DNA of 63,938 nt, counting the filler, from an uncultured Methanosarcinales archaeon (GTDB lineage: Archaea > Nanobdellota > Nanobdellia > Woesearchaeales > CAYSVS01), in assembly GCA_964434475.1 (NCBI GenBank). It is 3 parts of 3 records of this genome, joined end to end, with 100 filler letters (N's around TTAATTAATTAA, not from the genome) between each part and the next. Parts side by side here need not be neighbours in the genome. Positions count along the whole stretch, not along the records: positions 26,610 to 51,337 come from CAYSVS010000016.1; 2 more parts are not named here. One strand, written 5' to 3'. A program made the translations under genes and the position numbers. Below, one piece after another: positions 24,748-60,926 of the stretch; within the stretch, counting starts at the first letter, position 1; each line of letters begins with the position of its first letter. Under the pieces are notes generated by a model. The model had not been told where the DNA came from, ran no database searches, and saw only the letters and a program-made list of their open reading frames with translations.

Positions 24748-25188
24748 CTACTTTTCTTCTGTCCATAAATAATAAACCAAAAAACAAACACCAACAACTA
24801 AAGCACCATCTGCAAGATTAAACACAGGCCATATCCTAAAATCAAGATAATCTATAACATAACCAAAACTTAATCTGTCAAAAAGATTGCCCAATGTACC
24901 TCCTATTATCAATGCTATCGCAGTTTGTACATACATCTTATCAGGAATCTTTCTGTAATAATATGCTATAGCGAACAACACCAAAAAAGAGATAATTATG
25001 ATAAATAAAGTCTGATTCTGCAATAATCCGAATCCAACACCATAATTCTTTACATATGTAATATGAAAAATATTTGCAATAACTTTTATGCTTTCAACTC
25101 TTTTCACGATATAATTCTTAATTATTCTATCAATCAGAAATACAGCAATAGAAACCAGAAAAATAAGATAACCTTTACTCTTTAACAT
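24748..25188 (-). CDS. lspA: Signal peptidase II (lipoprotein signal peptidase)
   Basis: KNYGVGFG, GNLFDR, GYVIDYL, PVFNLAD catalytic Asp motifs. Start placed at MLKSKG. Confidence 0.92.
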   Translation of the reverse strand: MLKSKGYLIFLVSIAVFLIDRIIKNYIVKRVESIKVIANIFHITYVKNYGVGFGLLQNQTLFIIIISFLVLFAIAYYYRKIPDKMYVQTAIALIIGGTLGNLFDRLSFGYVIDYLDFRIWPVFNLADGALVVGVCFLVYYLWTEEK

Positions 25189-25195
25189 CTTGTAT

Positions 25196-25627
25196 TTACC
25201 ATCTTGTTTCTTTTGTAACTGATTTTTCAATAGAATTTAGCCTATGGTTTATAGCTTCCATACTTGCACGTAATGCATCTATCTTTGCAGATATTATCTC
25301 CAGTTCTTTTCCCACATTCTGCTGCGCATATTGTGGAGACTGCTGAGGTTGAGATTGAGGCTGCTGAGAATATCTTGGTTGTTGTTGTTGTTGTTGAAAG
25401 TATTGCTGCGGTTGTGGCTGTTCTGTCTGTGCAGACGGGTCAAAACTCCTTTCTGGCTTAGGCTCTCCCCCTAAAGGCTCTTCAAAAGCTTTTGGTCTTG
25501 CACTTTGATTCTCTTGACCAGGAAAATCTAAACCTAATTCTCTGTCTTTCCCTAAACCAAGATCCTTATCCAGATCAAGATCTGAAAATTCATCATCTTT
25601 TTTCCAAAATTTCAACTTATCAAGCAT
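25196..25627 (-). CDS. Hypothetical protein with amphipathic N-terminus, Q/P-rich linker and coiled-coil C-terminus
   Basis: MLDKLKFWKK...QQQQQQP...ELEIISAKIDALRASMEAINHRL. Confidence 0.75.
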   Translation of the reverse strand: MLDKLKFWKKDDEFSDLDLDKDLGLGKDRELGLDFPGQENQSARPKAFEEPLGGEPKPERSFDPSAQTEQPQPQQYFQQQQQQPRYSQQPQSQPQQSPQYAQQNVGKELEIISAKIDALRASMEAINHRLNSIEKSVTKETRW

Positions 25628-26509: not shown

Positions 26510-26609
26510 NNNNNNNNNNNNNNNNNNNNNNNNNNNNNNNNNNNNNNNNNNNNTTAATTAATTAANNNNNNNNNNNNNNNNNNNNNNNNNNNNNNNNNNN
26601 NNNNNNNNN
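26510..26609. other. Artificial contig linker N44-TTAATTAATTAA-N44
   Basis: Six-frame stop cassette in N padding; identical at 51338-51437. Confidence 0.97.
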
Positions 26610-28912
26610 AACCTTGTATTATTTAATATAGGCCTTCCTTTCCAGCATCCTGCGTATGAACCGCCTTCAAAGCTTTCATTGATGTCATCGCCGCAGCAAT
26701 GATTCTCAACTTCGCCTGAATTCTCGCTTGATTTTGTTGTCCACCAATAACCTGGTGTTTCCATGCAGGCTAAACTATCCTCATCAAGATTATCTTCCCA
26801 TTTGAAATCAGAAGTACAATATTTATTATTATTATCGTCTGAATTGCTCAAATATACCCTATCAACAAAAAATACATTGTATCTAGGATCGCCCTTGTAG
26901 TCTACCCTTTCATTATCATTAGGGTTAAAAAAGTCTTTTCTTAAAAAGAATCCCATATCCTGCACATCATCCAACCCAATATTTCCTAGATCAGATAAAG
27001 GTATTCTAATCCTGTGCCATTTCATAGGCTGCTCACCATTTACAGAATATTTAATAACATGAGAGATATATTTAGTGCTTTGTTTGCCTTTGACAAACAA
27101 GCCTATGTTTGAGTTGCCTGCAAAAGCAAGGAATAATTCAAGATAATCATAATCTCTCCAATCATTTACCATAGTCTCTTGGTTCAATGCTTTAAACAAT
27201 GCATCCGATCCCTCAACAAACTTATATTCCCTTAATTTTGTATTCAATGCTGTCTGGTCCAATATAGAAACAACATTATGATCGCTAGGATACCTCATAC
27301 CGCCTGCATAAAAATTCATATCTGTTATCAATGCAGCTGGTTCTCCTTGCCTTCTTACTCTATCCTTAGCATTCAAATTTTCTCTGCAAGTGTTCATATC
27401 AGAAGAATCATAAGCGCAGCAATCCAAAAAAATGGATCTATCGCCATCATCAAAGCACAAGAAAGCACTTGCTGTTTTTGAAGGCAGGTTAGAAGTATCA
27501 AAAGTAGCGAAGAACAGATCAGACATATCTTGTTCTATTTCGACTTGCTTTTCATACTCCTCGTTTTCCTCAGGGGCTTCATTGGTTATCTCGTTTACAG
27601 TTACTTTTTCAAAGCAATCAGATGATGAACTTGTAACTATATTGGGTTTTATATCTTGTTCTGAAGTAGATAGTGATCCTTGAACAATCCAGTCTCCTGT
27701 CTCTGTACCTTCTTCTTCAGCAACTGCATCTATAGTTTGCATATTTTCAAGAACACTTCCTGTCAATCCTGCAATAGGCAAAGATTCTCCTGTCTGTTTG
27801 CAAGTATGCCAAGTATAATAATCAGAAACAATATCTCTATCTTGTGTAGCTGTTTTTACATTAAATATCTTAAATTTATTAGCAGAAGCTTTTTTCCATT
27901 CCCAATCATTATCATCTTCTTTCACATATGTATCAACAACTGCATCAAAATTTGAATCAGGCAGCAAGCAAGCTTTATCGCTTCCTTCTGGTTGATTAGA
28001 ATCAGCTTCTTGATAATACCCTAGATCTGATTGAAAATCATCTCCGCAGCATCTGTTGCTTGTAGAATCTGAATTCCATACATCGATTATTACTTCAGTT
28101 ATACGCGAAACATCATCTTCCTGTGATTCTTCTGGTTTAACGCTTCCTGCGCATTTATAACTTCCTGATTCTGAGGTTCCGCCTGTTGCTGAAGCTGGTA
28201 ATACACATGTTATTGAGCCGATGTTAGCTGCTTTGCTATTTAGGTTTTCTTTGCATGTGTATATGTACCAGTAATCATTACATCTATAACAAGAACCTCC
28301 TGCTTCATAAAGACTAGGATCTGATTGGATATTATAACATTCATTCTCACTTACTTTTTGCGGATTTTTACAAGCCTTACATTGGTCATCCTGTAATTCA
28401 CATACAACATTATCATTATCGATCGTAGTAGGGGAATATATTTGAGTTGTTGAGAAAGCACAAGCAGAATATTGCGCTGCTAAATTTGTCATCACCTGTT
28501 TTTCATACTGCCAAATGTACTCCTTATCTATGCTTATCTGCGTACAACTAGGATATGGATCGCCAGGTATTGGTGGTATAGGTACTCCATGTGCTTCTAT
28601 ATCTTGTTGTCCTTGATTTCTCAAAAGTTCAGGAGGTGTTGAAACAGAGAATAAATAATCTCCGTCTTCGTAACATTCTGGTTTTAATGTATTTCCATCA
28701 TAACAGCTCAAATCGCAAGATTCTGAATTCATACTGTTACCCAAGTTAACAGATTGTCTCAATAAACCTTGTTCTTTAACAACTTCTGGATCTTCATGCT
28801 TTATAGTGCATACCATTTTATCACCAAAAACACTCAAAGAATTTGCTATTAATAAGAATATAATTAGATAAGATATAACAAAACCTCTATTTTTATAAAA
28901 TACTATACCCAT
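26610..28912 (-). CDS. Large secreted Cys-rich protein (3'-truncated at contig end)
   Basis: KNRG-FVISYLIIFLLI class-III-like signal, repeated CCGDD motifs and a CBM-like segment (WHRIRIPLSDL). Confidence 0.75.
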
Positions 28913-28972
28913 TAATAAACCCCTTTTTTAATAAAAATATATTTAAATAATATATAAACTTTATGTTTTAAA

Positions 28973-29980
28973 ATGTTAATATATTATGGTATTACAATTA
29001 TCTTGCTTGGCATTATAACAAGCTATGAGGATATTAAAAAAAACAAGATAAGGAATAAGATAGTCTTAAGTGCAATAACTATAGGAATAATTCTTAATTC
29101 AATTTCATACTATCAAAAGGCTATAGGAACACAATATCTATATGAACTTATAACAAACGTCCTCATTACAATAATTGCCGCTTTTGCAATATGGAATTTT
29201 GGATTGTGGAGTGCAGGAGATGGCAAACTGTTCATAGCTTATTCTGTGCTTATTCCTTTATCTTTTTTCAGGATAGGTTATCAAAAATATTTTCCATCTA
29301 TAACCTTGTTGATAAACACATATATCCCTCTACTAATAATAATGTTGATATATGTAATAGTCAAAGCAAAAAAAAAGGACAGGAAAAAGCGGTTTAAAGA
29401 ATTTATCAAAGGTTTTTTTGACATGAAAAAAACAATCCTATCAATAATCTATCTATTGGCTTTTTTATGGATAATAAGTCTGGCATTGATAAAGATAGGG
29501 GTAGATAACTATATGTTGATGTTATTCTTAACAATACTTATCTACTACATTATCCAAAGAAAGTTAGGAAAAAAAACACTATATATTGCAATAATCATAA
29601 TGATTATCAGGCTAGCGACAGATAAATCGATATACTCAATAAACTTCCTTAAAGAATTGCTGATGTTGTTTATAGTATGGAAATTGTTATATAGTTTTCT
29701 TCAGGGTGCTTTGTACAAACTTGCTCATGACGTTTTTAGCTACAAGATCAGCACAAGCAAACTTAAACCAGGAATGATATTAAGTGATGACATTAATTTA
29801 GATATAGACGAAGAAGCAGAAGGTTTGACAAGAAAACAGATAGAAACAATAAAAAGATCAAATATAGAAGAGGTTAAGATAAGCCAAACAATGCCTTTTG
29901 CAGTTTTCATGTTTTTAGGAACAATCATAACGATGATTGTGGAAGGCAATGTAATAATATATCTGATAAGGTTGATATGA
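28973..29980 (+). CDS. A24 family prepilin-type aspartic peptidase
   Basis: SYEDIKKNKIRN and WSAGDGKL catalytic Asp motifs; C-terminal MPFAVFMFLG; multi-TM. Confidence 0.88.
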   Translation: MLIYYGITIILLGIITSYEDIKKNKIRNKIVLSAITIGIILNSISYYQKAIGTQYLYELITNVLITIIAAFAIWNFGLWSAGDGKLFIAYSVLIPLSFFRIGYQKYFPSITLLINTYIPLLIIMLIYVIVKAKKKDRKKRFKEFIKGFFDMKKTILSIIYLLAFLWIISLALIKIGVDNYMLMLFLTILIYYIIQRKLGKKTLYIAIIIMIIRLATDKSIYSINFLKELLMLFIVWKLLYSFLQGALYKLAHDVFSYKISTSKLKPGMILSDDINLDIDEEAEGLTRKQIETIKRSNIEEVKISQTMPFAVFMFLGTIITMIVEGNVIIYLIRLI

Positions 29981-30283
29981 ATGGAATCAAAAACAATAAG
30001 ATTGAATAAAAACATATACTCTCTGGAAGTAATTTTCTCTGCTGCTTATGTTTTTCTTGAGAAAGCATACATAAAACTCGATGAAGAAAATGAAAACATA
30101 GTAGTGAACATAAGCCAAAAACAGGGTCAAGACATGCAAAATATAGAGAAAGAATTTTTGAATGAATTGATAAATTATTCAGATTATAAAAAAAGAGCAG
30201 AAAGATCAAGAAACATAAGGGAAATAATAATACAAAGAGCTATCTTGACAAATGAAACAGAGCAAAAGAAATATCAAAAATGA
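29981..30283 (+). CDS. hxsD: His-Xaa-Ser system HxsD-like protein
   Basis: IYSLEVIFSAAYVF...EFLNELINY...IREIIIQRA; immediately upstream of HxsB-like rSAM. Confidence 0.8.
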   Translation: MESKTIRLNKNIYSLEVIFSAAYVFLEKAYIKLDEENENIVVNISQKQGQDMQNIEKEFLNELINYSDYKKRAERSRNIREIIIQRAILTNETEQKKYQK

Positions 30284-30480
30284 TAATAAGATTGAATAAC
30301 AAGATATATTGTAGAAAGGCTATAAAACTAGCTTTGGAAGATTACAAAGATATATGTGCAGGAAAGATAATAGATGAAAGCTTTGAAGTAAAGCTATCGC
30401 CGAAACAAGAAACAAAATATTTAGAAAAAGAGTTCTGCAATTATATAATAGGTATTATGAAAAATGAGAAAATGATCTAA
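30280..30480 (+). CDS. Second, short HxsD-like protein
   Basis: IRLNNKIYCRKAI...EKEFCNY resembles the previous ORF (IRLNKNIYSLEVI...EKEFLNE); ATGA overlap. Confidence 0.7.
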   Translation: MIIRLNNKIYCRKAIKLALEDYKDICAGKIIDESFEVKLSPKQETKYLEKEFCNYIIGIMKNEKMI

Positions 30481-30481
30481 G

Positions 30482-31864
30482 ATGGAAAACAATATCAATT
30501 TCTACAGATACAAGAAATTCAATGAAAAATATTTTCTTACAACCGATCATGGAAGCTATTGCGTACTGGATGAAAAAGAGTTTAGTAATTTAAAAAAAAA
30601 AGATATAAACAGTATCCTAAAACAAAAGCTTGAACAAAGCGAAATTCTCTTGGACAAAAGCACAATAGAAGAATCTGTTAGGTTGACAAGAAAAAGAAAC
30701 CATTTTCTGTTCAACGGTGCTTCGTTGCACATTGTCGTTGTAACATTAAGATGCAACATGAACTGCATATATTGTCATGCGAGCTCTGAACAAGAAAACA
30801 AAGATGAATTTGATATGGATAAGGAAACAGCGAAAAAAACAGTTGATTTTATATTTCAGACACCAAGTAAAGATATTTGCATTGAGTTTCAAGGTGGAGA
30901 GCCTTTGCTCAACATTGAAATAATAAAATACATAGTAGAATATGCTAAAGAAAAAAACAAAGAAGCAAAAAAAGAACTAGAATTTACTTTGGTAAGCAAC
31001 TTAAGTTTGATGGACGACAAAATCTTGGATTATCTTATAATAAACAACATAAGCATATGCACTTCTTTGGACGGACCTAAGGAGTTGCACGATTATAACA
31101 GAATATTCTCTAAAACAAGCAATTATGAACAAGTTACATATTGGATCAGAAAAATACAAGAGGAATACAAGAAAAGAAACATAAAAAACAAAAAAATAAA
31201 TGCATTGGTTACATTGACTAACAAAAGCCTGCAATACTCTAAAGGAATAATAGATGAATATGTTAAACTAAGATTGAATATAATCCACCTAAGATATCCT
31301 AATAATTTAGGTTTTGCTAAAGAAGCATGGAAAAACATCAGGTTTTCGGCAGACGAGTTTATAGGATTCTGGAAAACATGCATGGAATACATCAAAGAAC
31401 TTCAGAACAAGGGAATAAACATCCAAGAGAGGATGTTCAACATAATGTTCAAGAAGATAAACGAACAATATGACCCTAATTATCTGGATCTTAGAACACC
31501 TTGCGGCGCTGTAATAAGTCAATTAACATACAATTATAATGGAAATATTTTTGGCTGCGATGCTGCAAGAATGCTGCAAGATAACATCTTCCAGATAGGG
31601 AATGTACACAAAGATAATTACAAAGAAACAACAAATTGCGACAAAGCTTGTACAATAATTAACGCTTCAATAAATGATCAATACATATGTGACGATTGTG
31701 TTTACAAACCCTATTGCGGAGTTTGTCCTGTAATAAATTATTCAGAACAAGGAAATATAATAGGAAAGATAACACAAACTGACAGATGCAAGATATTGAA
31801 ACAGCAGTTTGATTATGTAGTTAAAGAAAAGTTTATAAATACAGAAAATAATTATTATGATTAA
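30482..31864 (+). CDS. hxsB: Radical SAM/SPASM peptide maturase, HxsB-like
   Basis: TLRCNMNCIYCHAS, EFQGGEPLL, TSLDGP, DLRTPCGA, and SPASM Cys pattern CDDCVYKPYCGVCP...C. Confidence 0.88.
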   Translation: MENNINFYRYKKFNEKYFLTTDHGSYCVLDEKEFSNLKKKDINSILKQKLEQSEILLDKSTIEESVRLTRKRNHFLFNGASLHIVVVTLRCNMNCIYCHASSEQENKDEFDMDKETAKKTVDFIFQTPSKDICIEFQGGEPLLNIEIIKYIVEYAKEKNKEAKKELEFTLVSNLSLMDDKILDYLIINNISICTSLDGPKELHDYNRIFSKTSNYEQVTYWIRKIQEEYKKRNIKNKKINALVTLTNKSLQYSKGIIDEYVKLRLNIIHLRYPNNLGFAKEAWKNIRFSADEFIGFWKTCMEYIKELQNKGINIQERMFNIMFKKINEQYDPNYLDLRTPCGAVISQLTYNYNGNIFGCDAARMLQDNIFQIGNVHKDNYKETTNCDKACTIINASINDQYICDDCVYKPYCGVCPVINYSEQGNIIGKITQTDRCKILKQQFDYVVKEKFINTENNYYD

Positions 31865-32120
31865 CGTGGTCAATTTTCCTAAACTAAAGAAAAAGATAGA
31901 ATCATTCTTGACAAAAGAAGATGGAAAAATAAGCAAAGAGAACATAGTAAAAACAGGAATAGTGTTAAGCGTAGCAGCTGCTGCCGCAGTAAAAAACAGC
32001 GATGCAGATTGTCCTCCAACGATAGGAAAATACAATGACCATTGCAACGGATTAAGTGTTACTATGCCAACACCAAAAACAGTCAAGGCAACGCACAATC
32101 ATGCAGTCAACGAAGGTTAA
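31857..32120 (+). CDS. Putative RiPP precursor peptide with pilin-like leader
   Basis: Overlaps the rSAM stop. Leader FLTKEDG-KISKE, a hydrophobic stretch, then a core with HCN and HNH. Confidence 0.75.
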   Translation: MINVVNFPKLKKKIESFLTKEDGKISKENIVKTGIVLSVAAAAAVKNSDADCPPTIGKYNDHCNGLSVTMPTPKTVKATHNHAVNEG

Positions 32121-32785
32121 ATATAATCTTGAGGATTAGATTTTCTGTGTATATTATTCTGTATTTTATTATACATATTGGTGCAAGAATCCTTTGCTTC
32201 TTTTGGATGCATTCCGAGCACAGTAAAAAAAGTACATAAATCCTTCGCAGTTCGCATCTCATAAGGATCGTTTGCAAAGCTCGCAATTATAGAATTTATC
32301 TTATACTTTCTTATCAGCTTTATGTTCTGCATTATCCTTCCAAGAAATTTAACCCTGTTTTTATCGTCATTAAGCAATGTTGAAAACGCAATACCTAAAG
32401 ATATTTTTTTTTCTTTTAACAATTTACAAAGTACTTGATTCAATCCTGATTCTCTGTAGTGGATAGGATCAGATAATTCAGAACATTCTAAGTCATAGAT
32501 TATATCCATCTCTTTTCTTTCAAAAAATTTTCTTTCCCTATTGTTGGTCAATACTATATCAGCAATCTTCTTTGCTTTTCTTGCTTTAGTTAAATCTTTT
32601 ATCCTTAACCCTAAAAATATATGGATCTTGCTGTTTTTCAGAGCATTATCCTTGAACTTGTTAAATTTCTTGATATCAAAACTACTAAAATCATACACAA
32701 AGCACAATGCTTTTATGCCTAGCTTATCTGCAAAATCTACAAATTTATCTTCATTGTTCTTTGGAAAGACTATATCACGAAACAT
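32117..32785 (-). CDS. rnp3: Ribonuclease P protein component 3 (Rpp30)
   Basis: SGLNQVLCK, RIMQNIKLIRKY, SFANDPYEMR. Confidence 0.85.
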   Translation of the reverse strand: MFRDIVFPKNNEDKFVDFADKLGIKALCFVYDFSSFDIKKFNKFKDNALKNSKIHIFLGLRIKDLTKARKAKKIADIVLTNNRERKFFERKEMDIIYDLECSELSDPIHYRESGLNQVLCKLLKEKKISLGIAFSTLLNDDKNRVKFLGRIMQNIKLIRKYKINSIIASFANDPYEMRTAKDLCTFFTVLGMHPKEAKDSCTNMYNKIQNNIHRKSNPQDYI

Positions 32786-34447: not shown

Positions 34448-35287
34448 TTAGTTGTTTTGCAGTTCATCCAACTTTTTTTCAATTTCTTCCTTTGTCATAC
34501 CGACCAAAGGTCTAAACTCTACTAATCCTATATCTAATTGCTCAACTTCATCTAAAGTTTGTCCAACAACAACTGCGTTAATTTTATGTTTTTCAGCAAT
34601 TTCTTTAATCTCTTTTTTGTTAGATATTTTTATGTTCTCTAACTTTGCCCCGCAAGAATATTTTTCTAAAACATCATATGCAATATTTCCTAGATTCAAC
34701 AAAACAACAGGACACCCTCTTTTCATCATAAGAAACGCAGCATATATGTCTTTCCTGTCTTCAAGCAGACAAAGCAATTTTCCTGCGCTTCCTAAAGGCA
34801 ATCCTCCAACAGCTTTCTTTTTTTCTGAAAAAACATATGCTTTATCCTTGACTATCTCTATGCATATTTCTTTATCAAAATTTTTAAGGTTAACCTTTGC
34901 TTTTGTTTTCTCAACAACATAAGCTCCAATCTCTCTGTCAATTTCCATAGACGTTTTTTTATGGCCTTTATTGCTTCTTTGTGTTGTTACCCTAAATTTT
35001 GTTTTTTCGTCAAAATCACATATTACGTGAGAAACAGTTTGTTTTATAGATTCAATATCTGAATCGCAAACCTTTGCATAACTATAGCTGACAATTCCAA
35101 ATATATTTTTTATTTCATCAAATTTTTCATCAGTATAAACGAACAATCTTCCATGACTTTTTACTATCTTATCAAAAGAAATATTATTTTTTTTCAGGCA
35201 TTGCTTGACATTATCTTTCAGAATATCCTCAAATATTTTTCTGTTTCCACCTTTTAACGCTATCTCTCCGTATCTAACAATTATCAT
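34448..35287 (-). CDS. ThiI-like THUMP protein with degenerate catalytic domain
   Basis: IVRYGEIALKGGNR, THUMP domain, GGLPLG and MMKRGC retained; SGGIDS PP-loop absent. Confidence 0.85.
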   Translation of the reverse strand: MIIVRYGEIALKGGNRKIFEDILKDNVKQCLKKNNISFDKIVKSHGRLFVYTDEKFDEIKNIFGIVSYSYAKVCDSDIESIKQTVSHVICDFDEKTKFRVTTQRSNKGHKKTSMEIDREIGAYVVEKTKAKVNLKNFDKEICIEIVKDKAYVFSEKKKAVGGLPLGSAGKLLCLLEDRKDIYAAFLMMKRGCPVVLLNLGNIAYDVLEKYSCGAKLENIKISNKKEIKEIAEKHKINAVVVGQTLDEVEQLDIGLVEFRPLVGMTKEEIEKKLDELQNN

Positions 35288-36798
35288 TTTCTTTTCTTGT
35301 AGTCTTCAATCGCTTTTCTTAACGCATCTATGGAAAGATTAGAGCAATGAAGCTTCAGCGAAGGCAATCCTCCTAATTCATCAGAAATATCCTTGTTAGT
35401 CATCCTTTCTATCTCTGTTAGAGTCCTTCCCTTGACCATCTCGGTCATCTTTGAGCTTGTAGCGATTGCGGCAACACACCCGAACGTCTTTACCTTGATA
35501 TCTTTTATGTATTCTTTGCCTTCCTCATTTTTCTCTACTTTGATAAAAACTTCCATCACATCTCCGCAATTATGTAAAATAAATGCCTCTGAGATAAATG
35601 ATTTGGTTTTATTGACTTCAAGGTTGTGGACTGTTCCATTATATTTTATCTTTTTAACCGAAGATAAAGGCATAAAAAGATAATTTTTATCAAACCAAGA
35701 GTCGATTGATTTTCTTTTTGCTGATTTAAATTTAATCTTCAATATATCTGCTAATTTTTTAAGAGACTCCCTGTGACCTATATGAATTCTATATGCTTCT
35801 TTATGAAAAAGACCTTTTCTTTCTTTTGCAGCTTCTACATAAATTGAAGGCACTATTTTTTGTCTAATTAGTAATATTTTAATCTGTTGACAAAGTCTTC
35901 TAGATATAGTTGCATATCCCGCACGAGATTTATTTATATTAAAAAAACCATCTCCTTTCCAAAGACCATAGATTAAGCTTTTCTGTTTCTCAGGAGGAAG
36001 TAACATAAAAAAATAAGGAATAGATTTGTTTTTAGCGCCATTATCAAATAATTCTTTAAAAAGACGCGCTATCCAAACATTATATATGTGTACTGCGACG
36101 ACATTGCTATTTGTTCTGAACTCTTTCTTACCATTAATACCAAATAAATGTTTTACAATATAAAGTACGTCATCTGCAAGATGATTCTCGTTGATATTAA
36201 ATGAAAAAGTCAGATAAGTTTTACAGGTTTTAAGCCTTATGCTGCCTTCAGCCAAATAATAACCAGATAATCTTAAAAATTTTGCATTAATAGGGATCTT
36301 TTTAGGTATAGATATACTCTTGAAATCCCATTTTTTTTTAACATTGTTATAGTAAATATAATCCTTATCTTCAATTATTTTTAGAATAGGATATAATACA
36401 ACATCATTTTTTTCTAAATCATAAGCATGATACCATGCTGACAGCAATTCTTTTTTATTCTTGATTCTAGCAAATTTATCTTTTTTAGGAACTTTGACAG
36501 CTAAAACCATATGCTCAGGGGTTAAAAGAATGTTTCCTAACTTATTTTTAAATTCTATCAAAGAACCATAATATTTTCTTTTTGATATATTTTCAACAGC
36601 ACTGTATTTGCCATTACAGTCTAGGACCTTGTGATTTCTGGTTATTTCTTCAATAGGCAATAAAGCACCCTCTAAATGTATATTAAAACCCTTTGCAATG
36701 CATGTAGGATTTCCTACCCTGCCTATGCCGTTAGCATCTTCCAGCTTCCCCATATTTTTAGGATTCTTAAATTGATCTATCACTTTTTCATTGTACAT
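35284..36798 (-). CDS. iscU: IscU/NifU-type Fe-S scaffold interrupted by an intein (126 aa after splicing)
   Basis: N-extein ...NPKNMG...VGNPT; C-extein CGDVM...KTFGCVAAIATSS...KLHCS. Confidence 0.92.
   Translation of the reverse strand: MYNEKVIDQFKNPKNMGKLEDANGIGRVGNPTCIAKGFNIHLEGALLPIEEITRNHKVLDCNGKYSAVENISKRKYYGSLIEFKNKLGNILLTPEHMVLAVKVPKKDKFARIKNKKELLSAWYHAYDLEKNDVVLYPILKIIEDKDYIYYNNVKKKWDFKSISIPKKIPINAKFLRLSGYYLAEGSIRLKTCKTYLTFSFNINENHLADDVLYIVKHLFGINGKKEFRTNSNVVAVHIYNVWIARLFKELFDNGAKNKSIPYFFMLLPPEKQKSLIYGLWKGDGFFNINKSRAGYATISRRLCQQIKILLIRQKIVPSIYVEAAKERKGLFHKEAYRIHIGHRESLKKLADILKIKFKSAKRKSIDSWFDKNYLFMPLSSVKKIKYNGTVHNLEVNKTKSFISEAFILHNCGDVMEVFIKVEKNEEGKEYIKDIKVKTFGCVAAIATSSKMTEMVKGRTLTEIERMTNKDISDELGGLPSLKLHCSNLSIDALRKAIEDYKKRK
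35569..36702 (-). mobile_element. Intein with LAGLIDADG homing endonuclease (378 aa)
   Basis: Starts Cys (CIAKG), block B LTPEH, LAGLIDADG blocks LSGYYLAEG and IYGLWKGDG, block F VHNLEV, ends HN followed by Cys+1. Confidence 0.93.
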
Positions 36799-38504: not shown

Positions 38505-39131
38505 ATGGATAAAAAAATAGCATTATTGTTGTTAAGTCAAGGAATAGATAGTCCTGTTGCCGGGCATATGATAAAAAAGCAAGGAATAGAGATTGAAGCC
38601 ATACATTTTGATACAGGAAATTCTATAGACACGATCAAAGAATTGTGTGCAAAAACAAAAATAAAAAAACTATACCTGATAAAATACAGTAAAGTATTGA
38701 AACAAATTTCTAAAATATGTAAAAAGGATTTGACTTGTGTACTGTGTAAAAGAACTATGCTGAAGATTGTTGAAAGATTGGCACAAAAAAAAAATATCAG
38801 CTATTTGATAACTGGGGATAATATAGCGCAAGTTGCAAGCCAGACAGTAGAAAACATGATAGCCATAAGATCCAATATAAATATGCCCATACTTAGTCCC
38901 TTATTGGGTTTTGATAAGCAAGAGATAATAGATATCGCAAAAAAAATAGAAACATATGAAATAAGTACGCAGAATGTTTCTAAGTGCTCTTTTGTACCTC
39001 TTAAGCCAATAACAAAAATAAGGACAGAAATTTTAGAAAAAGAAGAAAAGAAGTTAGAAAATGAAAAAATAATGAAAATAGCATTAGAAAATTGCAAAGA
39101 ATGTATCATAAACAGCACTAAAAAGCATTAA
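38505..39131 (+). CDS. Stand-alone ThiI catalytic (PP-loop) domain
   Basis: LLSQGIDSPVA, CVLCKR, TGDNIAQVASQT, PLLGFDKQEII, KCSFVP; no THUMP domain. Confidence 0.85.
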   Translation: MDKKIALLLLSQGIDSPVAGHMIKKQGIEIEAIHFDTGNSIDTIKELCAKTKIKKLYLIKYSKVLKQISKICKKDLTCVLCKRTMLKIVERLAQKKNISYLITGDNIAQVASQTVENMIAIRSNINMPILSPLLGFDKQEIIDIAKKIETYEISTQNVSKCSFVPLKPITKIRTEILEKEEKKLENEKIMKIALENCKECIINSTKKH

Positions 39132-51547: not shown

Positions 51548-54500
51548 ATGTATTTATTTAGTCATGATGTTAAAGATATTGAAAATATTAAAGCTTTAAA
51601 TTTTTCTAGTACAAATGAATTGGATTCTTATGATGAAGATCCTTATTTTGAAGGAAAAGTCCATAAAGAATTAATAAAGCAAGCGCAAGAAAATGATGAT
51701 GAAAAAATTGAAGTGATTATCACATTAAATAACATGAATAATATCCAAGAAATTGAACAAAAAATCAAAGATTTAAATGGAGAAATCAAGCAAGAATTAA
51801 AGATTGCAGGTGCAGTCTATGTTGAAGTTCCAAAAGATAGCTTAGAACAAATTTCTGAAGAACAAGAAATTGATAGATTATGGCCAAATCAAAGATATGA
51901 ACTATTGTTAGATGATAGTGTGCCTTATATTGGCGCACCAACAGCATGGGATTTAGGTTATAATGGTTCAGGAATAAAAATTGCAATAATTGATACTGGT
52001 ATAGATGATACTCATGAAATGCTAGATAATGGTAAAGTTGTTTTAAAACAAGATTTTTCTGGTCAAGGGACAACTAATGATACTAATGGACACGGAACAC
52101 ATTGTGCAGGTATTGCTGCAGGTAATGGTGCACTATTAGGTGTTGCAAAAGGTGCAGACTTAGCTAATGTTAGAGTTGGAAGTAATCCCACTACAGTTGA
52201 ATTAATAAATGCAATTGAATGGGCTTCGTTAAATACTGATATATTATCAATAAGTTTAGGTGCACAACTTAATAACCCTGAAGGGCCATTTAAAACTGCA
52301 ATTAATAATGCAATTAACAACGGAGCAATCATAATTATTGGTGCTGGAAATTGTGGTCCTTGCGGTGGATGTAGTAGTTTTGAAGGAGTAACTAATCCTG
52401 GCGATGTTGAAGAAGTAATAACTGTGGGATCTATTTATGATTCTAATGAAGAGATTGCTTGTAGTTCAGGAAGACAAAATTTTACAACATACCAAAAACC
52501 AGAAATTGTTGCACCAGGCGTATCAATAATTTCAGCAAAAGTTGGTGGAGGCTATGTTTTAAAGGGAGGAACCTCAATGGCAACACCTCATGTTGCAGGA
52601 GTTGTTGCATTATTACTACAAAAAGATCCAACACTAACACATTTCGATATTAAAGCATTACTACAAAAAACAGCAACTGATGTAGGTTCTCCTGGAATAG
52701 ATCTAGAATCAGGATATGGAGTAGTGAATGTAACAAGTTTATTCCAAGATGATCTTATAGGAGAATGTAACATTACTAATGATTGTGGAACACCAACTTG
52801 GACAGGAACTCCAATTTGTGATAATAATTCTGTTTATCAAAACAAAACATATTATACTTGCAATTTCCCAGATACAAGAGCCTCATATTGTGCTAATACA
52901 ACTATATTCACATTAAAAGAAAATTGCACTTTAGGATGCGAAGATGGAACATGCATTATTCCAGCATGTAATAATGATTCTGAATGTGGAACTAACTCTT
53001 GGATTAACTCAGAACAATGTAATGCTGATGATGTTTATCAAGATTATTTAACTTATACTTGCAATGATCCTGGAACTATTAATGCTACTTGCACAAACAC
53101 AACTACATTCAATCTAAAAGAGAATTGTTCAGATGTTTGTTTTGAAGGTGCTTGTTATACACCTTCATGTTATAACAACACTCAATGTGGAACTAACAAT
53201 TGGGTAAATCAACCTTATTGTAATTCAACAGATGTTTTTCAAGATTATCAAACATTCACTTGTTTAAATCCTGGAGAATTTAATGCAACTTGCACTAATA
53301 CAACAACTCCAATATTCAAACAAAACTGTACAGATGAATGTTATAATGGTTCTTGTTATACTCCTGCTTGCAATAGCGATCCAGATTGTGGAACTAATGG
53401 TTGGATTAATTTAGAACAATGCAATGCAGATGATGTCTATCAAGATTACTTATCTTACACTTGTCAAGATCCTGGAACTATAAATGCAACTTGCACAAAC
53501 ATAACTACATTTACTCTAAAACAAAATTGCTCTGACATTTGTCATGATGCTGCTTGCGTTGTTCCAACTTGTTATTCTGATTCAGAATGTGGTGCAAACA
53601 CATGGATTGATCAGCCGTATTGTAACAGCGATGACATATTTCAGAATTACAAAACATTCACTTGCTTAAATCCTGGACAGCATAATGCTGTTTGTACTAA
53701 CACAACTGTTTCAACATTCAAACAAAATTGTACTAATTGTGATAATGGTTCTTGTTATACTCCTGCTTGCAATAGCGATTCTGATTGTGGAACTGATTCT
53801 TGGATTAATTCAGAGCAATGTAATGCAGATGATGTTTATCAAGATTACATATCTTACACTTGCCAATATCCAGGCACAATAAATGCAACATGTGAAAACG
53901 CAACTACATTTACTCTAAAACAAAATTGTTCAGATATTTGTCATGATGCTGCTTGTGTTGTTCCAACTTGTTATTCTGATTCAGAATGTGGTGCAAACAC
54001 ATGGACTGATCAGCCGTATTGTAACGGCGATGACATATTTCAGAATTACAAAACATTCACTTGCTTAAATCCTGGACAGCATAATTCTGTTTGTACAAAC
54101 ACAACTGTTTCAACATTCAAAGAAAATTGTACTAATTGTGATAATGGTTCTTGTTATGATCCAATATGTAATCAAGATTCAGATTGTGGAACTGATTCTT
54201 GGATTAATTTAGAACAATGCAATGCAGATGATGTCTATCAAAATTACATATCCTATACTTGCCAATATCCAGGCACAATAAATGCAACATGTGAAAACGC
54301 AACCACATTTACTCTAAAACAAAATTGTTCAGACATTTGTCATGATGCTACTTGTGTTGTTCCAACTTGTTATTCTGATTCAGAATGCGGTACAAACACA
54401 TGGATTGATCAGCCGTATTGTAACGGCGATGACATATTTCAGAATTACAAAACATTCACTTGTTTAAATCCAGGACAGCATAATTCTGTTTGTACTAACA

Positions 54501-55906
54501 CAACTGTTTCAACATTCAAAGAAAATTGTAATAATTGCGATAATGGCGCTTGTTATACTCCTGCTTGCAATAGCGATTCAGATTGCGGAACTAATGGCTG
54601 GATTAATTCAGAGCAATGTAATGCTGATGATGTTTATCAAAATTACATTTCCTATACTTGTCAAAATCCAGGCACAATAAATGCAGCCTGTACAAACTCT
54701 ATAGCTTTTAACTTAAAACAGGATTGCGGAATTTATGGCTTATATTGTTATGGCGGTAGTTGCGAAAGCATATCTTGTTTTGATAATTCTGATTGTAGTA
54801 AATATGATGGTTGGGAAGGTTACCCTACTTGTAAATACGGCGATGTTTATCTTGATTATGCTACATATTACTGCAATAATAAAGGCACGCCTTCATCTTC
54901 TTGCATTGCTGGATATGATCTGAGATTGAAAGAAGAATGTGACTCTGATGAAGTCTGTTCAGGCGGAACATGCAAAGCTGTTGAATGTTTTGATGATTCT
55001 GAGTGCGGTGAAGATTATTTTGAATACATCTGCAGAAATGATAATCTTTATTCGCATGTTACCCATTATTATTGTAAGAATTCTGGAACTGATAAATCTG
55101 AGTGTGCATACCGTGAAACTTTTAATTTCTTGAAAAACTGTCTTAATGGCTGTTCTTCAGGCCAATGCTCTTATCAAATATCTTGTTTCAAGGATTCTGA
55201 TTGCGGTTCAGATAAATTCATAGGTTCAAAAACTTGTGAAGATAATTCGGTTTATCAGTCATATAGAGATTGGCAATGCAAGAATCCTGGAACAAAAGAT
55301 TCTGTTTGCCAATATAATGATGAAGCAAAAATGGTTGATGAGTGCAACATCTGTCAAGATGGAAGATGTGTGGATTGTGCATCAGATAATGATTGCAGCA
55401 GTGAGCTGTCTGGTATGAAATATTGTAATCAGGATAATGTTTATATGGACCGAAAATATTATGAATGTATATCTGGAGAATGCGTTTATGCTACATCATC
55501 TCCTGAATTGATTGAAACTTGTGGTGGATGTTACAATGGAGTTTGTATAGAATATGAGGATTATTCTGAAGAAAATATATTGGATATTGAAGTCTATGAT
55601 TTGACTATGATGAATCGGCGTTTTCCTAGATTGAACGAAAACATAATATATAGATTTTATGTGAAAAATACTGGGGATTTTGATGTCTCAGACATAGATT
55701 GGATATTTGATCCTGACAAGAATGAACCTCAGCAATCTGGAACAATTTCCAGCCTGAAAAAAGGCCAGGTTAAAGCAATATATGTCATGCATTCTTTTAC
55801 TAATTATTTGGAACACTATCCTAAAATAACATTAGATCCTTATAATATATTTGATGAAGATGATGAAACCAATAATGTTGCAATTGGATATGCTTTTGTG
55901 AAATGA
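51548..55906 (+). CDS. Secreted S8 subtilase with 14 eight-Cys repeats and C-terminal CARDB-like domain (frame open upstream to the gap)
   Basis: Triad IAIIDTG, HGTHCAG, GTSMATP; I9-like prodomain; VKNTG...DPYN...EDDETNN CARDB pattern. Upstream in-frame VILLVIFTNYSVVSS resembles a signal peptide. Confidence 0.9.
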   Translation: MYLFSHDVKDIENIKALNFSSTNELDSYDEDPYFEGKVHKELIKQAQENDDEKIEVIITLNNMNNIQEIEQKIKDLNGEIKQELKIAGAVYVEVPKDSLEQISEEQEIDRLWPNQRYELLLDDSVPYIGAPTAWDLGYNGSGIKIAIIDTGIDDTHEMLDNGKVVLKQDFSGQGTTNDTNGHGTHCAGIAAGNGALLGVAKGADLANVRVGSNPTTVELINAIEWASLNTDILSISLGAQLNNPEGPFKTAINNAINNGAIIIIGAGNCGPCGGCSSFEGVTNPGDVEEVITVGSIYDSNEEIACSSGRQNFTTYQKPEIVAPGVSIISAKVGGGYVLKGGTSMATPHVAGVVALLLQKDPTLTHFDIKALLQKTATDVGSPGIDLESGYGVVNVTSLFQDDLIGECNITNDCGTPTWTGTPICDNNSVYQNKTYYTCNFPDTRASYCANTTIFTLKENCTLGCEDGTCIIPACNNDSECGTNSWINSEQCNADDVYQDYLTYTCNDPGTINATCTNTTTFNLKENCSDVCFEGACYTPSCYNNTQCGTNNWVNQPYCNSTDVFQDYQTFTCLNPGEFNATCTNTTTPIFKQNCTDECYNGSCYTPACNSDPDCGTNGWINLEQCNADDVYQDYLSYTCQDPGTINATCTNITTFTLKQNCSDICHDAACVVPTCYSDSECGANTWIDQPYCNSDDIFQNYKTFTCLNPGQHNAVCTNTTVSTFKQNCTNCDNGSCYTPACNSDSDCGTDSWINSEQCNADDVYQDYISYTCQYPGTINATCENATTFTLKQNCSDICHDAACVVPTCYSDSECGANTWTDQPYCNGDDIFQNYKTFTCLNPGQHNSVCTNTTVSTFKENCTNCDNGSCYDPICNQDSDCGTDSWINLEQCNADDVYQNYISYTCQYPGTINATCENATTFTLKQNCSDICHDATCVVPTCYSDSECGTNTWIDQPYCNGDDIFQNYKTFTCLNPGQHNSVCTNTTVSTFKENCNNCDNGACYTPACNSDSDCGTNGWINSEQCNADDVYQNYISYTCQNPGTINAACTNSIAFNLKQDCGIYGLYCYGGSCESISCFDNSDCSKYDGWEGYPTCKYGDVYLDYATYYCNNKGTPSSSCIAGYDLRLKEECDSDEVCSGGTCKAVECFDDSECGEDYFEYICRNDNLYSHVTHYYCKNSGTDKSECAYRETFNFLKNCLNGCSSGQCSYQISCFKDSDCGSDKFIGSKTCEDNSVYQSYRDWQCKNPGTKDSVCQYNDEAKMVDECNICQDGRCVDCASDNDCSSELSGMKYCNQDNVYMDRKYYECISGECVYATSSPELIETCGGCYNGVCIEYEDYSEENILDIEVYDLTMMNRRFPRLNENIIYRFYVKNTGDFDVSDIDWIFDPDKNEPQQSGTISSLKKGQVKAIYVMHSFTNYLEHYPKITLDPYNIFDEDDETNNVAIGYAFVK
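52766..55546 (+). repeat. Intragenic ~200-bp (66-67 aa) modules with a near-perfect 399-bp higher-order repeat
   Basis: CTCCTGCTTGCAATAGCGAT at 53361, 53760 and 54558 (spacings 399 and 798). Confidence 0.92.
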
Positions 55907-56519: not shown

Positions 56520-58271
56520 TTATTTATATTTTTTTGGATAATATTTAGTATGCAATAGCTTGTGCGCTCTCTCTGATCCAAACTTGCCAAGATAATCTTT
56601 ATAAATCTTTAATGCACCAGGATTCTTGTGGCTTTTTCTTAATTTCTTTTTCTCATCAACATTCACTAAAGCTTTTACCCTTTTTTTCAGTACTTCTGTT
56701 GTGCATGGCTGCGGTTGTCCTCCTCCGCCTATGCATCCACCATAGCAAGCCATAATCTCGATAAAATGATACTTGCTTTTACCTGCTTTTATATTTTCCA
56801 ATAATTTCCTTGCTTCTCCTAAAGTATGCACTGCGCAGACGTTTATCTTTTTGCCTGCTATCTCTACAGTCGCTTCTTTCATAGTATCCATGCTTCTTAA
56901 TTTTTTATAGTCTATCTTTTTCAATTCCTTGCTTTCAAGCCAGTCTGCTGCTGTCCTTAATGCAGCTTCCATCACTCCGCCTGTATGTCCGAATATAGCT
57001 GCTGCGCCTGTTGATTCACCAAGAGGATTGTCAAACTCGTCATCTGAAAGATTCATAAAATCAATATTCATCTCTTTGATAAGCTTGCTTAATTCAACAG
57101 TTGTCAATACAAAATCAGCTTCTCCTTTGAATTCTGGTCTAGATATCTCAAATTTCTTAGCTGTACATGGCATAATATCTACTAATACAATATCTTTTGG
57201 ATCTTTCTTTATTTTTTTAGCATAGTATGTTTTTACTAATGATGCAATGATCGCTTGCGGACTTCTACAAGATGACATATGTTTTAGTTGGTCAAAATAG
57301 AACTGCTCTCCGAATTTTATCCATGCAGGGCAGCAAGTTGTTATCATAGGCAAATCGCGATTCTCCTTTAATCTTTTAACAAATTCAGTAGCTTCTTCTA
57401 TAATACATATATCTGCACCTAAGTCTGTATCAAATACTTTATCAAAGCCAAGTTGTCTCAATGCTGCAACCATCTTACCAGTCACATTTGTTCCAGGTTT
57501 CATTCCAAAACACTCGCCAAGAGTTGCTCTTATAGAAGGAGCAGTCTGCGCAATTAGCATCTTGCCAGAATTTAATGCATCTATAACTCCTTTTATGTCA
57601 GACTTTTCAGTCAATGCTCCAGTTGGACAAACAATAACACATTGTCCGCAATTTACGCATGCAGATTCATTCATAGTAAAATTATTTGCAGGTTTGACTA
57701 TCGTATCAAATCCTCTATTATGAAAATCAATAGCGTGAACTGTTTGCACTTCATTGCACATTTTCACACATCTTCCGCAAAGTATGCATCTGTTGTTATC
57801 CCTTCTTATGCTTACGCTGGAATTATCAACTTCAGTAATTTTCTTTTCTCCAGAATATCTTATATCTTCAATCATCAGGTCAGAAGCATATTTTTGCAGT
57901 TCACAAGTAAGGTTCTTTGGGCATGAAGGACATTCTAGATCATGATTTGCAAGCAATAGTTCTAGATTTATCCTTCTTGCTTCCAATATTTTAGGTGTAT
58001 GAGTTCTTATTATCATGCCTTCTGCTGGTTTGGTATTGCAGCTAGTAGTAATTCTTGCCTTGCCGTTAATTTCTATCTCAACAACGCATAATCTACAATT
58101 AGCTGTTCTTTCTAGTCTTTCATGCATACAGAAATGCGGGATATTGATTCCATGCTCTTTTGCAATATCAATTATATATTTGTCTGGATTACACGATATT
58201 TTGTTATTGTTTATTGTAATGTTTACTTTGTTCTTTTTTCCCTGTTTTTTTTGTTTAGTTTTTTTTGCCAT
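56520..58271 (-). CDS. hydA: [FeFe]-hydrogenase catalytic subunit (group A, HydA/HndD-like)
   Basis: H-cluster motifs TTCCPAW, MPCTAKKFE, EIMACYGGCIGGGGQ; N-terminal 2Fe-2S, His-ligated 4Fe-4S and 2x4Fe-4S motifs. Confidence 0.96.
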   Translation of the reverse strand: MAKKTKQKKQGKKNKVNITINNNKISCNPDKYIIDIAKEHGINIPHFCMHERLERTANCRLCVVEIEINGKARITTSCNTKPAEGMIIRTHTPKILEARRINLELLLANHDLECPSCPKNLTCELQKYASDLMIEDIRYSGEKKITEVDNSSVSIRRDNNRCILCGRCVKMCNEVQTVHAIDFHNRGFDTIVKPANNFTMNESACVNCGQCVIVCPTGALTEKSDIKGVIDALNSGKMLIAQTAPSIRATLGECFGMKPGTNVTGKMVAALRQLGFDKVFDTDLGADICIIEEATEFVKRLKENRDLPMITTCCPAWIKFGEQFYFDQLKHMSSCRSPQAIIASLVKTYYAKKIKKDPKDIVLVDIMPCTAKKFEISRPEFKGEADFVLTTVELSKLIKEMNIDFMNLSDDEFDNPLGESTGAAAIFGHTGGVMEAALRTAADWLESKELKKIDYKKLRSMDTMKEATVEIAGKKINVCAVHTLGEARKLLENIKAGKSKYHFIEIMACYGGCIGGGGQPQPCTTEVLKKRVKALVNVDEKKKLRKSHKNPGALKIYKDYLGKFGSERAHKLLHTKYYPKKYK

Positions 58272-58279
58272 CTTACTTA

Positions 58280-58381
58280 TTAGTTTATTATGTTAAATAT
58301 TTTTAATAATAATACTATTAAACTTATTGTAGCGATTCCAACAAATATATATCCTATTATTTCTTTTGTTTTTTCTTTCAT
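58280..58381 (-). CDS. 33-aa single-TM microprotein (absent from ORF track)
   Basis: MKEKTKEIIGYIFVGIATISLIVLLLKIFNIIN; ATGA overlap with the upstream ORF. Confidence 0.65.
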   Translation of the reverse strand: MKEKTKEIIGYIFVGIATISLIVLLLKIFNIIN

Positions 58382-58557
58382 TTTTTAACTATAATTATAT
58401 CTTTTAAATTTTCTATCTGTGATAATAACAATACTGTAAAATACATTACATTGATTATTAATTCAAGAGTATCAAATCCTTTTGTTATTGCATATAATAC
58501 TATTAATATTGTAAACACAAAAGCCAATACATTTAATATGTCTCTATATGTTATCAT
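58378..58557 (-). CDS. 59-aa two-TM microprotein (absent from ORF track)
   Basis: MITYRDILNVLAFVFTILIVLYAITKGFDTLELIINVMYFTVLLLSQIENLKDIIIVKK; TAATG overlap. Confidence 0.65.
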   Translation of the reverse strand: MITYRDILNVLAFVFTILIVLYAITKGFDTLELIINVMYFTVLLLSQIENLKDIIIVKK

Positions 58558-58661
58558 TACATTACACCTAATATTTTCAGCACTAACAATATAATTCCTA
58601 ATACTCCTATAGTTATTCCAAAATATCCTAAGTATCTGAAAAAATCTTTAGCTTCTATCAT
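58557..58661 (-). CDS. 34-aa single-TM microprotein (absent from ORF track)
   Basis: MIEAKDFFRYLGYFGITIGVLGIILLVLKILGVM; GGAGGT RBS just after the hydB stop. Confidence 0.7.
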   Translation of the reverse strand: MIEAKDFFRYLGYFGITIGVLGIILLVLKILGVM

Positions 58662-58674
58662 ATTTTACCTCCAT

Positions 58675-60465: not shown

Positions 60466-60467
60466 TT

Positions 60468-60926
60468 TTATTTTAGTTTAGACAATAATTCATCTATCTT
60501 TTTTTCGTCCATATTTCCATAGACTTCTTCATTAATCATTATTGCAGGAGCTTTTGCACAAGCACCTATGCAATTTACTGTCTCTATTGAGAATTTTGTA
60601 TCTTTTGTTGTTTCGCCAGCTTTTATGTTGAGTTTTTTTTCAAGATATTTTAATAGATGATCTGAATTATGTACGTGGCATGCTGTCCCTCTGCATATAC
60701 TTATGTTGTATTTGCCTTTTGGCTTGAACTTAAACATTGAATAGAATGTAGCGACACCATATATATTTACTAAAGGAATTTTCATTGATTTAGAAATTTT
60801 CTCCAATTCTTTTTTAGGCAAATAACCTAAATTATCTTGTATTGCCTGAAGTGCAGGAATCAAGTCATATTTCCCAGAATATTTTTTCAGGATATCTTTG
60901 GTTTTGTTAGTATTATCATTCACCAT
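60468..60926 (-). CDS. hydC: NuoE-like 2Fe-2S subunit (HydC)
   Basis: GVATFYSMF, CRGTACHV, CIGACAKAP. Confidence 0.95.
   Translation of the reverse strand: MVNDNTNKTKDILKKYSGKYDLIPALQAIQDNLGYLPKKELEKISKSMKIPLVNIYGVATFYSMFKFKPKGKYNISICRGTACHVHNSDHLLKYLEKKLNIKAGETTKDTKFSIETVNCIGACAKAPAIMINEEVYGNMDEKKIDELLSKLK

Follow-up and report, generated by a model that had tools for sequence, protein, structure and literature searches.

What is a prepilin-type peptidase of the A24 family doing at the head of an archaeal operon for peptide maturation? The question is raised by positions 28973-32120 of a 63,938-nucleotide stretch of DNA from the archaeal assembly GCA_964434475.1 (the window, which here always means that whole stretch). 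A first-pass annotation of this DNA had described five abutting or overlapping co-directional genes at these positions, and all five open reading frames (ORFs) were recovered on the + strand at 28973-29980, 29981-30283, 30280-30480, 30482-31864 and 31857-32120, with products of 335, 100, 66, 460 and 87 amino acids (aa). From 5' to 3' the first two genes abut directly, the second and third overlap by 4 nucleotides (nt), the third and fourth are 1 nt apart and the last two overlap by 8 nt, and the five genes constitute one translationally coupled operon. This operon is a real and intact archaeal variant of the His-Xaa-Ser (Hxs, or HXS) systems, of a type found in Woesearchaeota and similar members of DPANN (Diapherotrites, Parvarchaeota, Aenigmarchaeota, Nanoarchaeota and Nanohaloarchaeota): it encodes the radical S-adenosylmethionine (SAM) maturase HxsB but no HxsC, and further comprises an HxsD-like protein and an A24 peptidase dedicated to it. 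The answer that we put forward, on which as a whole the evidence leaves us evenly divided, is that a clade of A24 membrane proteases of the GxGD type, found in DPANN archaea, the candidate phyla radiation (CPR) and other bacteria, has been recruited as the leader peptidase for His-rich peptides matured by radical SAM chemistry. Leader removal in the style of ribosomally synthesized and post-translationally modified peptides (RiPPs) would thereby be merged with processing of the class III type, one membrane protease taking the place of the usual protease/transporter. Such a role would also name the enzyme class that is missing from the HXS anti-phage model, and the product in ultrasmall archaea may be a surface barrier to viral genome entry. 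The first four genes of the operon are as follows.

28973..29980, + strand: Hxs-linked A24-family (GxGD-type) aspartyl membrane peptidase, 335 aa (PF01478, 31.9 bits, cut-off 26.5)
29981..30283, + strand: HxsD, 100 aa (TIGR03976, 63 bits, cut-off 50)
30280..30480, + strand: HxsD-like small protein, 66 aa (NF038315, 52.4 bits, cut-off 41)
30482..31864, + strand: HxsB radical SAM/SPASM maturase, 460 aa (TIGR03978, 444.5 bits, cut-off 370; Radical_SAM PF04055, 61.1 bits)

The A24 peptidase is the first ORF and the radical SAM/SPASM enzyme scores within the HxsB family, both as the first-pass annotation had proposed. Its "duplicated HxsD" stood for the second ORF, which is HxsD, encoded upstream of HxsB with one gene in between, but not for the third, which belongs to the separately named HxsD-like family. 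For comparison, 80 HxsB loci were taken from species-representative genomes and their ORFs were searched with the five proteins of the window; the division of these loci into 27 archaeal and 53 bacterial ones was taken from record titles, and one locus (L026) and one genome (G004) included in the counts are unpublished, with no claim hanging on either alone. An HxsD homologue was present in 64 of the 80 loci, and an HxsD-like homologue was located between HxsD and HxsB in 26. The closest named homologues of HxsB itself come from metagenome-assembled genomes (MAGs) of Woesearchaeota, Nanoarchaeota and Nanobdellota, at 51-66% identity, and 39 homologues all retain its CxxxCxxC cluster cysteines (C91, C95 and C98) as well as the C-terminal Cys in its SPASM region. 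The reported absence of HxsC (TIGR03977), and of a transporter from the operon, also held, since a Pfam scan of the 46 other window ORFs gave no second match to Radical_SAM, no transporter and no pilus gene. Nor was an HxsC above the 267.9-bit cut-off present in any of five related genomes, where the best radical SAM gene reached 170.6 bits. Arrays of several radical SAM genes, all under the HxsC cut-off with 63-171 bits, were observed from a few to about 20 kb away from the Hxs loci of related archaea (G001:C61:5154-9390; G003:C28:27235-28868; G004:C32:99822-109602); the window is without such an array.

With respect to the linkage of the peptidase to these genes, an A24 homologue was found in 33 of the 80 HxsB loci, and a profile built from those 33 recovered the same 33. 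It was present in 22 of the 27 archaeal loci, with 17 keeping the order A24-HxsD-(HxsD-like)-HxsB. In the archaeal loci L008, L020 and L023 a contig edge falls just upstream of HxsD, and the MAGs in which L007 and L021 have no A24 carry a second Hxs locus with one (L048 and L004). Bacterial loci held the peptidase in 11 of 53 cases (Elusimicrobia, Omnitrophota, Spirochaetes and Deltaproteobacteria), a few kb downstream and on the same strand, and five of five bacterial genomes whose Hxs locus showed no A24 within 6 kb were found to encode one copy of the Hxs type elsewhere (173-222 bits). A reciprocal search of metagenome contigs with the A24 alignment gave 80 loci, 64 of them assessable; an Hxs gene was present in 53 of the 64, and in 43 of those 53 it lay immediately downstream. 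Among 121 genomes of one order, HxsB and A24 occurred together in 28 and were both missing from 84, with 6 having HxsB but no A24 and 3 having A24 but no HxsB, that is, 34 genomes with HxsB (some with 2-4 copies) and 31 with an Hxs-type A24; the co-occurrence has a Fisher p of 2e-18, which is uncorrected for relatedness and drawn from incomplete MAGs. The first-pass annotation had made conservation of the peptidase beside HxsB homologues a test of its proposal, and the archaeal, reciprocal and genome counts all bear this out. Several HxsB matches were observed in single genomes (four in G046, of which one copy has in-frame stops, and two each in G056, G079 and G088).

By record titles, the adjacency of A24 and Hxs genes spans Woesearchaeota, Nanoarchaeota, Aenigmatarchaeota, Elusimicrobia, Omnitrophota and others. 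In the 65 loci holding both HxsB and A24, the only widely conserved families were HxsB (65), A24 (65), HxsD (60) and the precursor (39); the widely conserved neighbors are thus Hxs genes only, with no transporter among them. Judged from gene order and co-occurrence, the link between the peptidase and the Hxs genes is not one of chance.

Could the peptidase instead be the general pilin/archaellin peptidase of the organism, standing beside the Hxs genes by accident and without a functional link to them? It does pass the generic PF01478 threshold, and no other A24 was found among the scanned ORFs of the window. However, four of five related genomes encode a second, canonical A24 gene elsewhere, which scores 51-64 bits on PF01478 versus 20-23 for the Hxs-linked copy, and a profile of the Hxs-linked clade gave its own members 348-400 bits versus 35-51 bits for the canonical paralogues of the same genomes. 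From this gap of some 300 bits between the two kinds of A24, the Hxs-linked peptidase is, on profile scores, a distinct paralogous clade set apart from the ordinary prepilin peptidase. An accidental neighbor would also have to account for an adjacency conserved over the archaeal and bacterial groups named above, for the 28/6/3/84 distribution, and for a window whose scanned ORFs include no gene for the assembly of a pilus or archaellum. It is strongly disfavored, and we regard it as exceedingly improbable. No NCBIfam model gave a relevant match to the window A24 (E <= 1) or any match to the A24 proteins of L058, L047 and L065 (E <= 1e-5), and the peptidases scanned are therefore not named as part of the Hxs system.

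The catalytic Asp pair of the peptidase consists of D20, in DIKKNKIRN, and D83, in SAGDGKLF. D20, N28, W79, D83 and K85 are invariant among 26 aligned homologues, and in a second alignment all 32 sequences that span the two regions agree on both catalytic Asp residues, which lie in the patterns D-I-K-x-x-K-I-R-N and A-G-D-G-K-L-F. A model of the protein calculated with AlphaFold2 (predicted local distance difference test, pLDDT, 90.5; predicted template modeling score, pTM, 0.83) has about 10 helices, and residues 256-304 form a small domain that includes beta structure. The only strong structural match to this model was FlaK (3s0x_B; Z 14.0, root-mean-square deviation 3.7, 176 residues aligned), the runner-up having a Z of 6.5, and Foldseek returned FlaK with a probability of 0.99 but an E of 0.11. 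The peptidase alignment, run as a profile against solved structures, returned only chance membrane matches (E 0.008-0.65) and missed FlaK, so fold comparison was needed to see the likeness. PF06819, the C-terminal domain of archaeal A24 proteins, was matched only weakly (15.3 bits, under the cut-off of 23.4). Like FlaK (PDB 3s0x), the window peptidase falls in the Pfam A24 family and has two catalytic Asp residues, the second in an A-G-D motif. Unlike FlaK, it belongs to a distinct clade, is linked to a radical SAM gene rather than to pilus or archaellum genes, and has about four extra helices (residues 134-244, from the secondary structure of the AlphaFold2 model) beyond the 176 FlaK-aligned residues. 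PibD and EppA are further archaeal A24 prepilin/preflagellin peptidases (GxGD aspartyl proteases) alongside FlaK.

The last gene of the operon encodes the 87-aa peptide that is the presumed substrate, and its three parts are given here.

31857..31958, + strand: precursor residues 1-34, conserved leader PKLKKKIESFLTKEDGKISKENIVKTG, ending at G34 (proposed A24 cut between G34 and I35; comparison of 43 precursors)
31959..32006, + strand: precursor residues 35-50, uncharged IVLSVAAAAAV (11 aa) and polar KNSDA, ending in a signal-peptidase-I-like (-3,-1) site between A50 and D51 (comparison of 43 precursors for the stretch and 42 for the site)
32007..32120, + strand: precursor residues 51-87 and stop codon, 37-aa core with two Cys and three His (H62-C-N and T79-H-N-H; read from the sequence)

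Against HxsA3 (NF038309), only the N-terminal 36 residues of the 87-aa ORF aligned (26.8 bits). A leader profile made from 41 neighboring precursors scored it at 67.6 bits (E 3e-20), the sole such ORF in the window, and its leader is homologous to those of repeat-bearing HxsB neighbors in 41 loci. The window precursor was then compared with 42 others from genome loci in an anchored set of 43 sequences, gap-free through the leader. These share the pattern P-K-I-K-K-K-I-x-x-F-L-x-x-E-E-G-K-I-S-K, with E21 in 43/43 and G23 in 42/43, and all 43 have a small residue eleven residues past the Gly of the EEG motif (G in 32, A in 8 and S in 3; G34 in the window). The uncharged stretch which follows the small residue has a median length of 11 aa (range 8-20), and an A-x-A-like site was present in 37 of 42 precursors versus 45% of shuffles, with a peak at 16-17 residues past the small residue. 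Most of the precursors of relatives bear His-Xaa-Ser repeats after this signal-peptidase-I-like site. In the 66 precursors whose hydrophobic stretch is followed by 20 aa or more, His-Xaa-Ser was missing from 5, while 41 had H[SCTNQ]N and 27 had xHxH. A conserved leader joined to cores of varying length and repeat number, in a gene beside the maturase, is what marks a precursor of the RiPP type. The 87-aa peptide of the first-pass annotation can accordingly be kept as a precursor with an HxsA3-type leader, though not as one carrying a His-Xaa-Ser triplet. No further precursor copies or ORFs with His-Xaa-Ser repeats were found in the window. In two loci (L018:3311-4825 and L057:4104-5741), one from a CPR bacterium and one from an Aenigmatarchaeota MAG, leader and repeats continue into an additional C-terminal domain, some 350-450 aa long, which begins C-P-F-x-x-x-W-N-G, giving a precursor of 504-545 aa.

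The lack of the triplet, a state common to only 5 of the 66 precursors, would be expected if the system were a decaying remnant in this genome, its precursor having lost the repeats and being no longer a substrate. The end of the core fits that explanation also, as it stops 8 residues past T-H-N-H where relatives go on with H-x-S-H-S-S-Y. Decay is nevertheless difficult to reconcile with five intact and coupled ORFs, with catalytic and cluster-binding residues all in place and with a fully conserved leader. The core moreover retains two blocks common to relatives, H-C-N-x-L-S-V and T-H-N-H (T-H-x-H in general), and no frameshifted continuation of the precursor, with or without a repeat array, was seen in the DNA downstream. 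We consider a remnant very unlikely. A core without the name-giving motif bears on the question of what HxsB actually modifies.

A complex of the peptidase with its presumed substrate was predicted using A24 (26-row alignment) and precursor residues 1-55 (25-row alignment). The pair scored 0.71, while the best of three controls scored 0.00; among 80 solved complexes the score mark is attained by 58, and among 110 mismatched pairs by 2, counts that apply only roughly here, as own alignments were used. Separate runs agreed in at least 84% of contacts, with a partner pLDDT of at least 70. The predicted interface includes D20 and peptidase residues 77-83, and the lowest-error contacts are made by precursor residues 30-38, around G34. 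The prediction supports binding of the precursor by A24. We know of no solved complex of an A24 enzyme with a substrate, and it seems unlikely that the pair passed from model memory.

The first-pass annotation had also raised prepilin-type processing of the peptide, an idea which gains support from the small residue in 43/43 precursors, the intact catalytic Asp residues and the predicted complex. On the strength of sequence conservation and this model, we think that the A24 protease probably cuts the precursor leader at the conserved small residue. In the cytoplasm, the N-terminal leader of 33 aa would be bound by HxsB with the aid of HxsD and the HxsD-like protein, and HxsB would modify the C-terminal core with its His and Cys residues through radical chemistry. 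The short hydrophobic stretch past the leader would enter the membrane, and A24 would then cut the precursor between G34 and I35, in the way that prepilin peptidases cut class III signal peptides at the cytoplasmic face, as suggested by the conserved motif and the predicted complex. The signal-peptidase-I-like site between A50 and D51 may afterwards allow release of the 37-aa core outside the cell. The hydrophobic stretch was also considered as a pilin-like membrane anchor, and this was set aside on account of its median length of only 11 residues.

Class III signal peptides have a short basic leader with Lys or Arg at -2 and a small residue at -1, followed by a hydrophobic helix of the pilin type, some 20 aa long. 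Several observations weigh against a cut by A24 or against a strict tie between peptidase and Hxs genes. The presumed A24 substrate is unlike class III substrates in its conserved leader of 33 aa, in a basic residue placed at -3 (K32) and in the 11-aa uncharged stretch after G34 (also the median of the 43 precursors), which is shorter than a pilin-type membrane helix. The window precursor falls under the HxsA3 cut-off (26.8 versus 65 bits) and has no His-Xaa-Ser triplet anywhere. The complex score of 0.71 is the model's own confidence and not a measurement. Of the assessable A24-centered loci, 11 of 64 showed no Hxs gene nearby, a count that is not firm; similarly, 6 of 34 HxsB-positive genomes were without the peptidase and 3 genomes had the peptidase without HxsB, counts that are not firm as the MAGs are incomplete. 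Finally, the signal-peptidase-I-like site is conserved as well (37/42), so the maturing cut could come from another enzyme, and a cut by A24 is perhaps not the sole or the releasing step.

This last point leads to a different account of the locus, in which the precursor is exported as a normal Sec substrate whose n-region is extended, maturation comes from a cut by signal peptidase I between A50 and D51, and A24 is auxiliary: it might clear the leftover leader in the manner of a signal-peptide peptidase, free the maturase from the leader, or serve as a membrane dock or conduit. The A-x-A-like site, with its excess over shuffles and its sharply preferred spacing of 16-17 residues, is what such an account predicts; a hydrophobic stretch with a median of 11 is a closer fit for a Sec h-region than for a pilin helix, and the four or so helices at 134-244 beyond the FlaK-aligned part could be put to such uses. 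General signal peptides, however, require no dedicated clearing enzyme, and the invariance of both catalytic Asp residues implies that A24 is not a mere scaffold. The boundary small residue, found in 43/43 at a fixed spacing and put at the catalytic site by the predicted complex, also points to a specific cut there. We judge maturation by signal peptidase I with an auxiliary A24 to be unlikely, though well short of negligible. Should leader cutting by A24 hold true, it would be, to our knowledge, the first role of a prepilin-type peptidase outside pilin-like substrates.

How does this arrangement compare with Hxs systems described elsewhere? In E. coli, HxsD-HxsB-HxsC-HxsA is an anti-phage system which blocks the entry of phage DNA (Li et al., Nat Commun 2026, PMC13128918). 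According to the main text of that paper, N-terminal processing of HxsA needs HxsB, HxsC and HxsD and is not simple signal-peptide removal, an SHRSS motif of the protein carries a +8 Da modification, and the protein acts in the periplasm. The protease for HxsA is not identified in that main text, where host factors not yet known are invoked, and 99.7% of HXS systems are placed in Pseudomonadota. A term search of the same main text for prepilin, peptidase, protease and archaea returned none of these words. A search of the literature likewise gave no paper linking a prepilin peptidase to Hxs or radical SAM maturation, subscription-only papers and the supplements of PMC13128918 lying outside the search. 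The dedicated and catalytically intact A24 of the archaeal and candidate-phyla variants is a concrete and testable candidate for the step at which the effector of an HXS system is cut and exported. The findings also extend Hxs systems to archaea, where HxsB appears to suffice without HxsC.

As in Pseudomonadota, HxsB and HxsD of the window pass the same curated models and a precursor is encoded alongside them. Unlike the Pseudomonadota systems, which the NCBIfam models TIGR03976-03979 describe, the window has no HxsC, an extra HxsD-like gene, a dedicated A24 and an archaeal host. N-terminal processing and export of the precursor, as reported in the main text for E. coli HxsA (PMC13128918), would be shared by the window. 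Set against HxsA as described there, the window precursor has 87 aa and a conserved leader of another kind, and it lacks both a peptidoglycan-binding domain and a His-Xaa-Ser repeat. In a canonical HXS plasmid locus, a single example with an incomplete gene table, hxsB-hxsC had no annotated A24 within 5 kb. Cyclophane crosslinking of the window peptide would be an analogy with related enzymes, and the one studied Hxs system has the +8 Da change instead (main text of PMC13128918). The NCBIfam variant models HxsA3 (NF038309), HxsA4 (NF038313), HxsC4 (NF038332) and HxsD-like (NF038315) were compared by names and scores. The window resembles these variants in that its third ORF passes HxsD-like and its precursor leader aligns with positions 1-36 of HxsA3. 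An Omnitrophota relative (L058) combines HxsD, HxsD-like, HxsB and HxsA4 (74.2 bits, cut-off 55) with two HxsC-like radical SAM proteins and the same kind of A24.

As to biological role, the E. coli system suggests by analogy that the product might form a barrier to viruses at the cell surface, a proposal that we regard as tentative and somewhat doubtful. The same processing could serve another purpose, the product being a secreted His/Cys-rich natural product of an episymbiotic archaeon, for example a metal-binding or host-interaction peptide. The setting of the operon is relevant here. The coding content of the window is that of an archaeal chromosome (ribosomal proteins S8e and L11, Spt5, FtsZ, TBP, MCM, PolD, Cdc6 and RNase P p30), and the RNase P p30 gene (window 32117-32785, - strand) is convergent with the operon and overlaps the 3' end of the precursor gene. 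The same gene adjoins the Hxs cassette in 11 of the 65 related loci (L002, L012, L013, L059, L066, L098, L107, L154, L161, L166 and L167), which indicates that the cassette holds a conserved chromosomal position in part of the lineage. A cassette placed among housekeeping genes beside a recurring neighbor argues for long vertical inheritance rather than a mobile defense island. The only PADLOC match was a generic viperin-like radical SAM hit for HxsB (43 bits), which would agree with a purpose other than defense, although the PADLOC version used dates from 2023 and is older than the HXS paper. The His-rich cores, in the window also with Cys, would suit a metal-binding product, and the archaeal precursors are without the peptidoglycan-binding domain described for E. 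coli HxsA in the main text of PMC13128918. On the other side, anti-phage defense is the only function given by experiment to any Hxs system, going by the same main text, and the patchy distribution of HxsB (34 of 121 genomes, 2-4 copies in some) is typical of accessory or defense genes. Patchiness thus fits an accessory or defense role, while the stable housekeeping neighborhood argues against a mobile island. We hold a purpose other than a viral barrier to be rather unlikely, yet one to be taken seriously.

Upstream of the operon, one weak element was read from the sequence.

28942..28949, + strand: possible archaeal TATA-like element TTTAAATA, 24-31 nt 5' of the A24 start codon

This element sits within a divergent intergenic region of 60 nt which is AT-rich all along, and this weakens the call. 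The divergent gene on the other side of this region (window 26558-28912, - strand) encodes a Cys-rich, predicted secreted protein of 784 aa with no Pfam match, and its 3' end reaches into an N stretch. Weak homologues of this protein (21-24% identity) adjoin Hxs cassettes in L012, L113 and L161.

Elsewhere in the window, in an otherwise archaeal segment, positions 24748-25230 (- strand) encode a homologue of signal peptidase II, the lipoprotein signal peptidase (Peptidase_A8, 119.1 bits); genes for this enzyme are uncommon in archaea. An intein that carries a LAGLIDADG homing endonuclease domain interrupts an IscU/NifU-like scaffold gene (35284-36798, - strand). ThiI is apparently divided into two genes on opposite strands (34448-35287, - strand, and 38505-39131, + strand), with ferredoxin-like and THUMP domains in one and the PP-loop ThiI domain in the other, and with IscS, IscU and a helix-turn-helix (HTH) gene between them. 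A three-gene set for an [FeFe]-hydrogenase, comprising HydA-like large, NuoF-like and thioredoxin-like 2Fe-2S subunits, was present at 56520-60926 (- strand) in what is a small-genome archaeon. Very large subtilase (S8) proteins are encoded on the + strand at 51548-55906 (1452 aa) and 61531-63936 (more than 802 aa), the former with a C-terminal CARDB domain.

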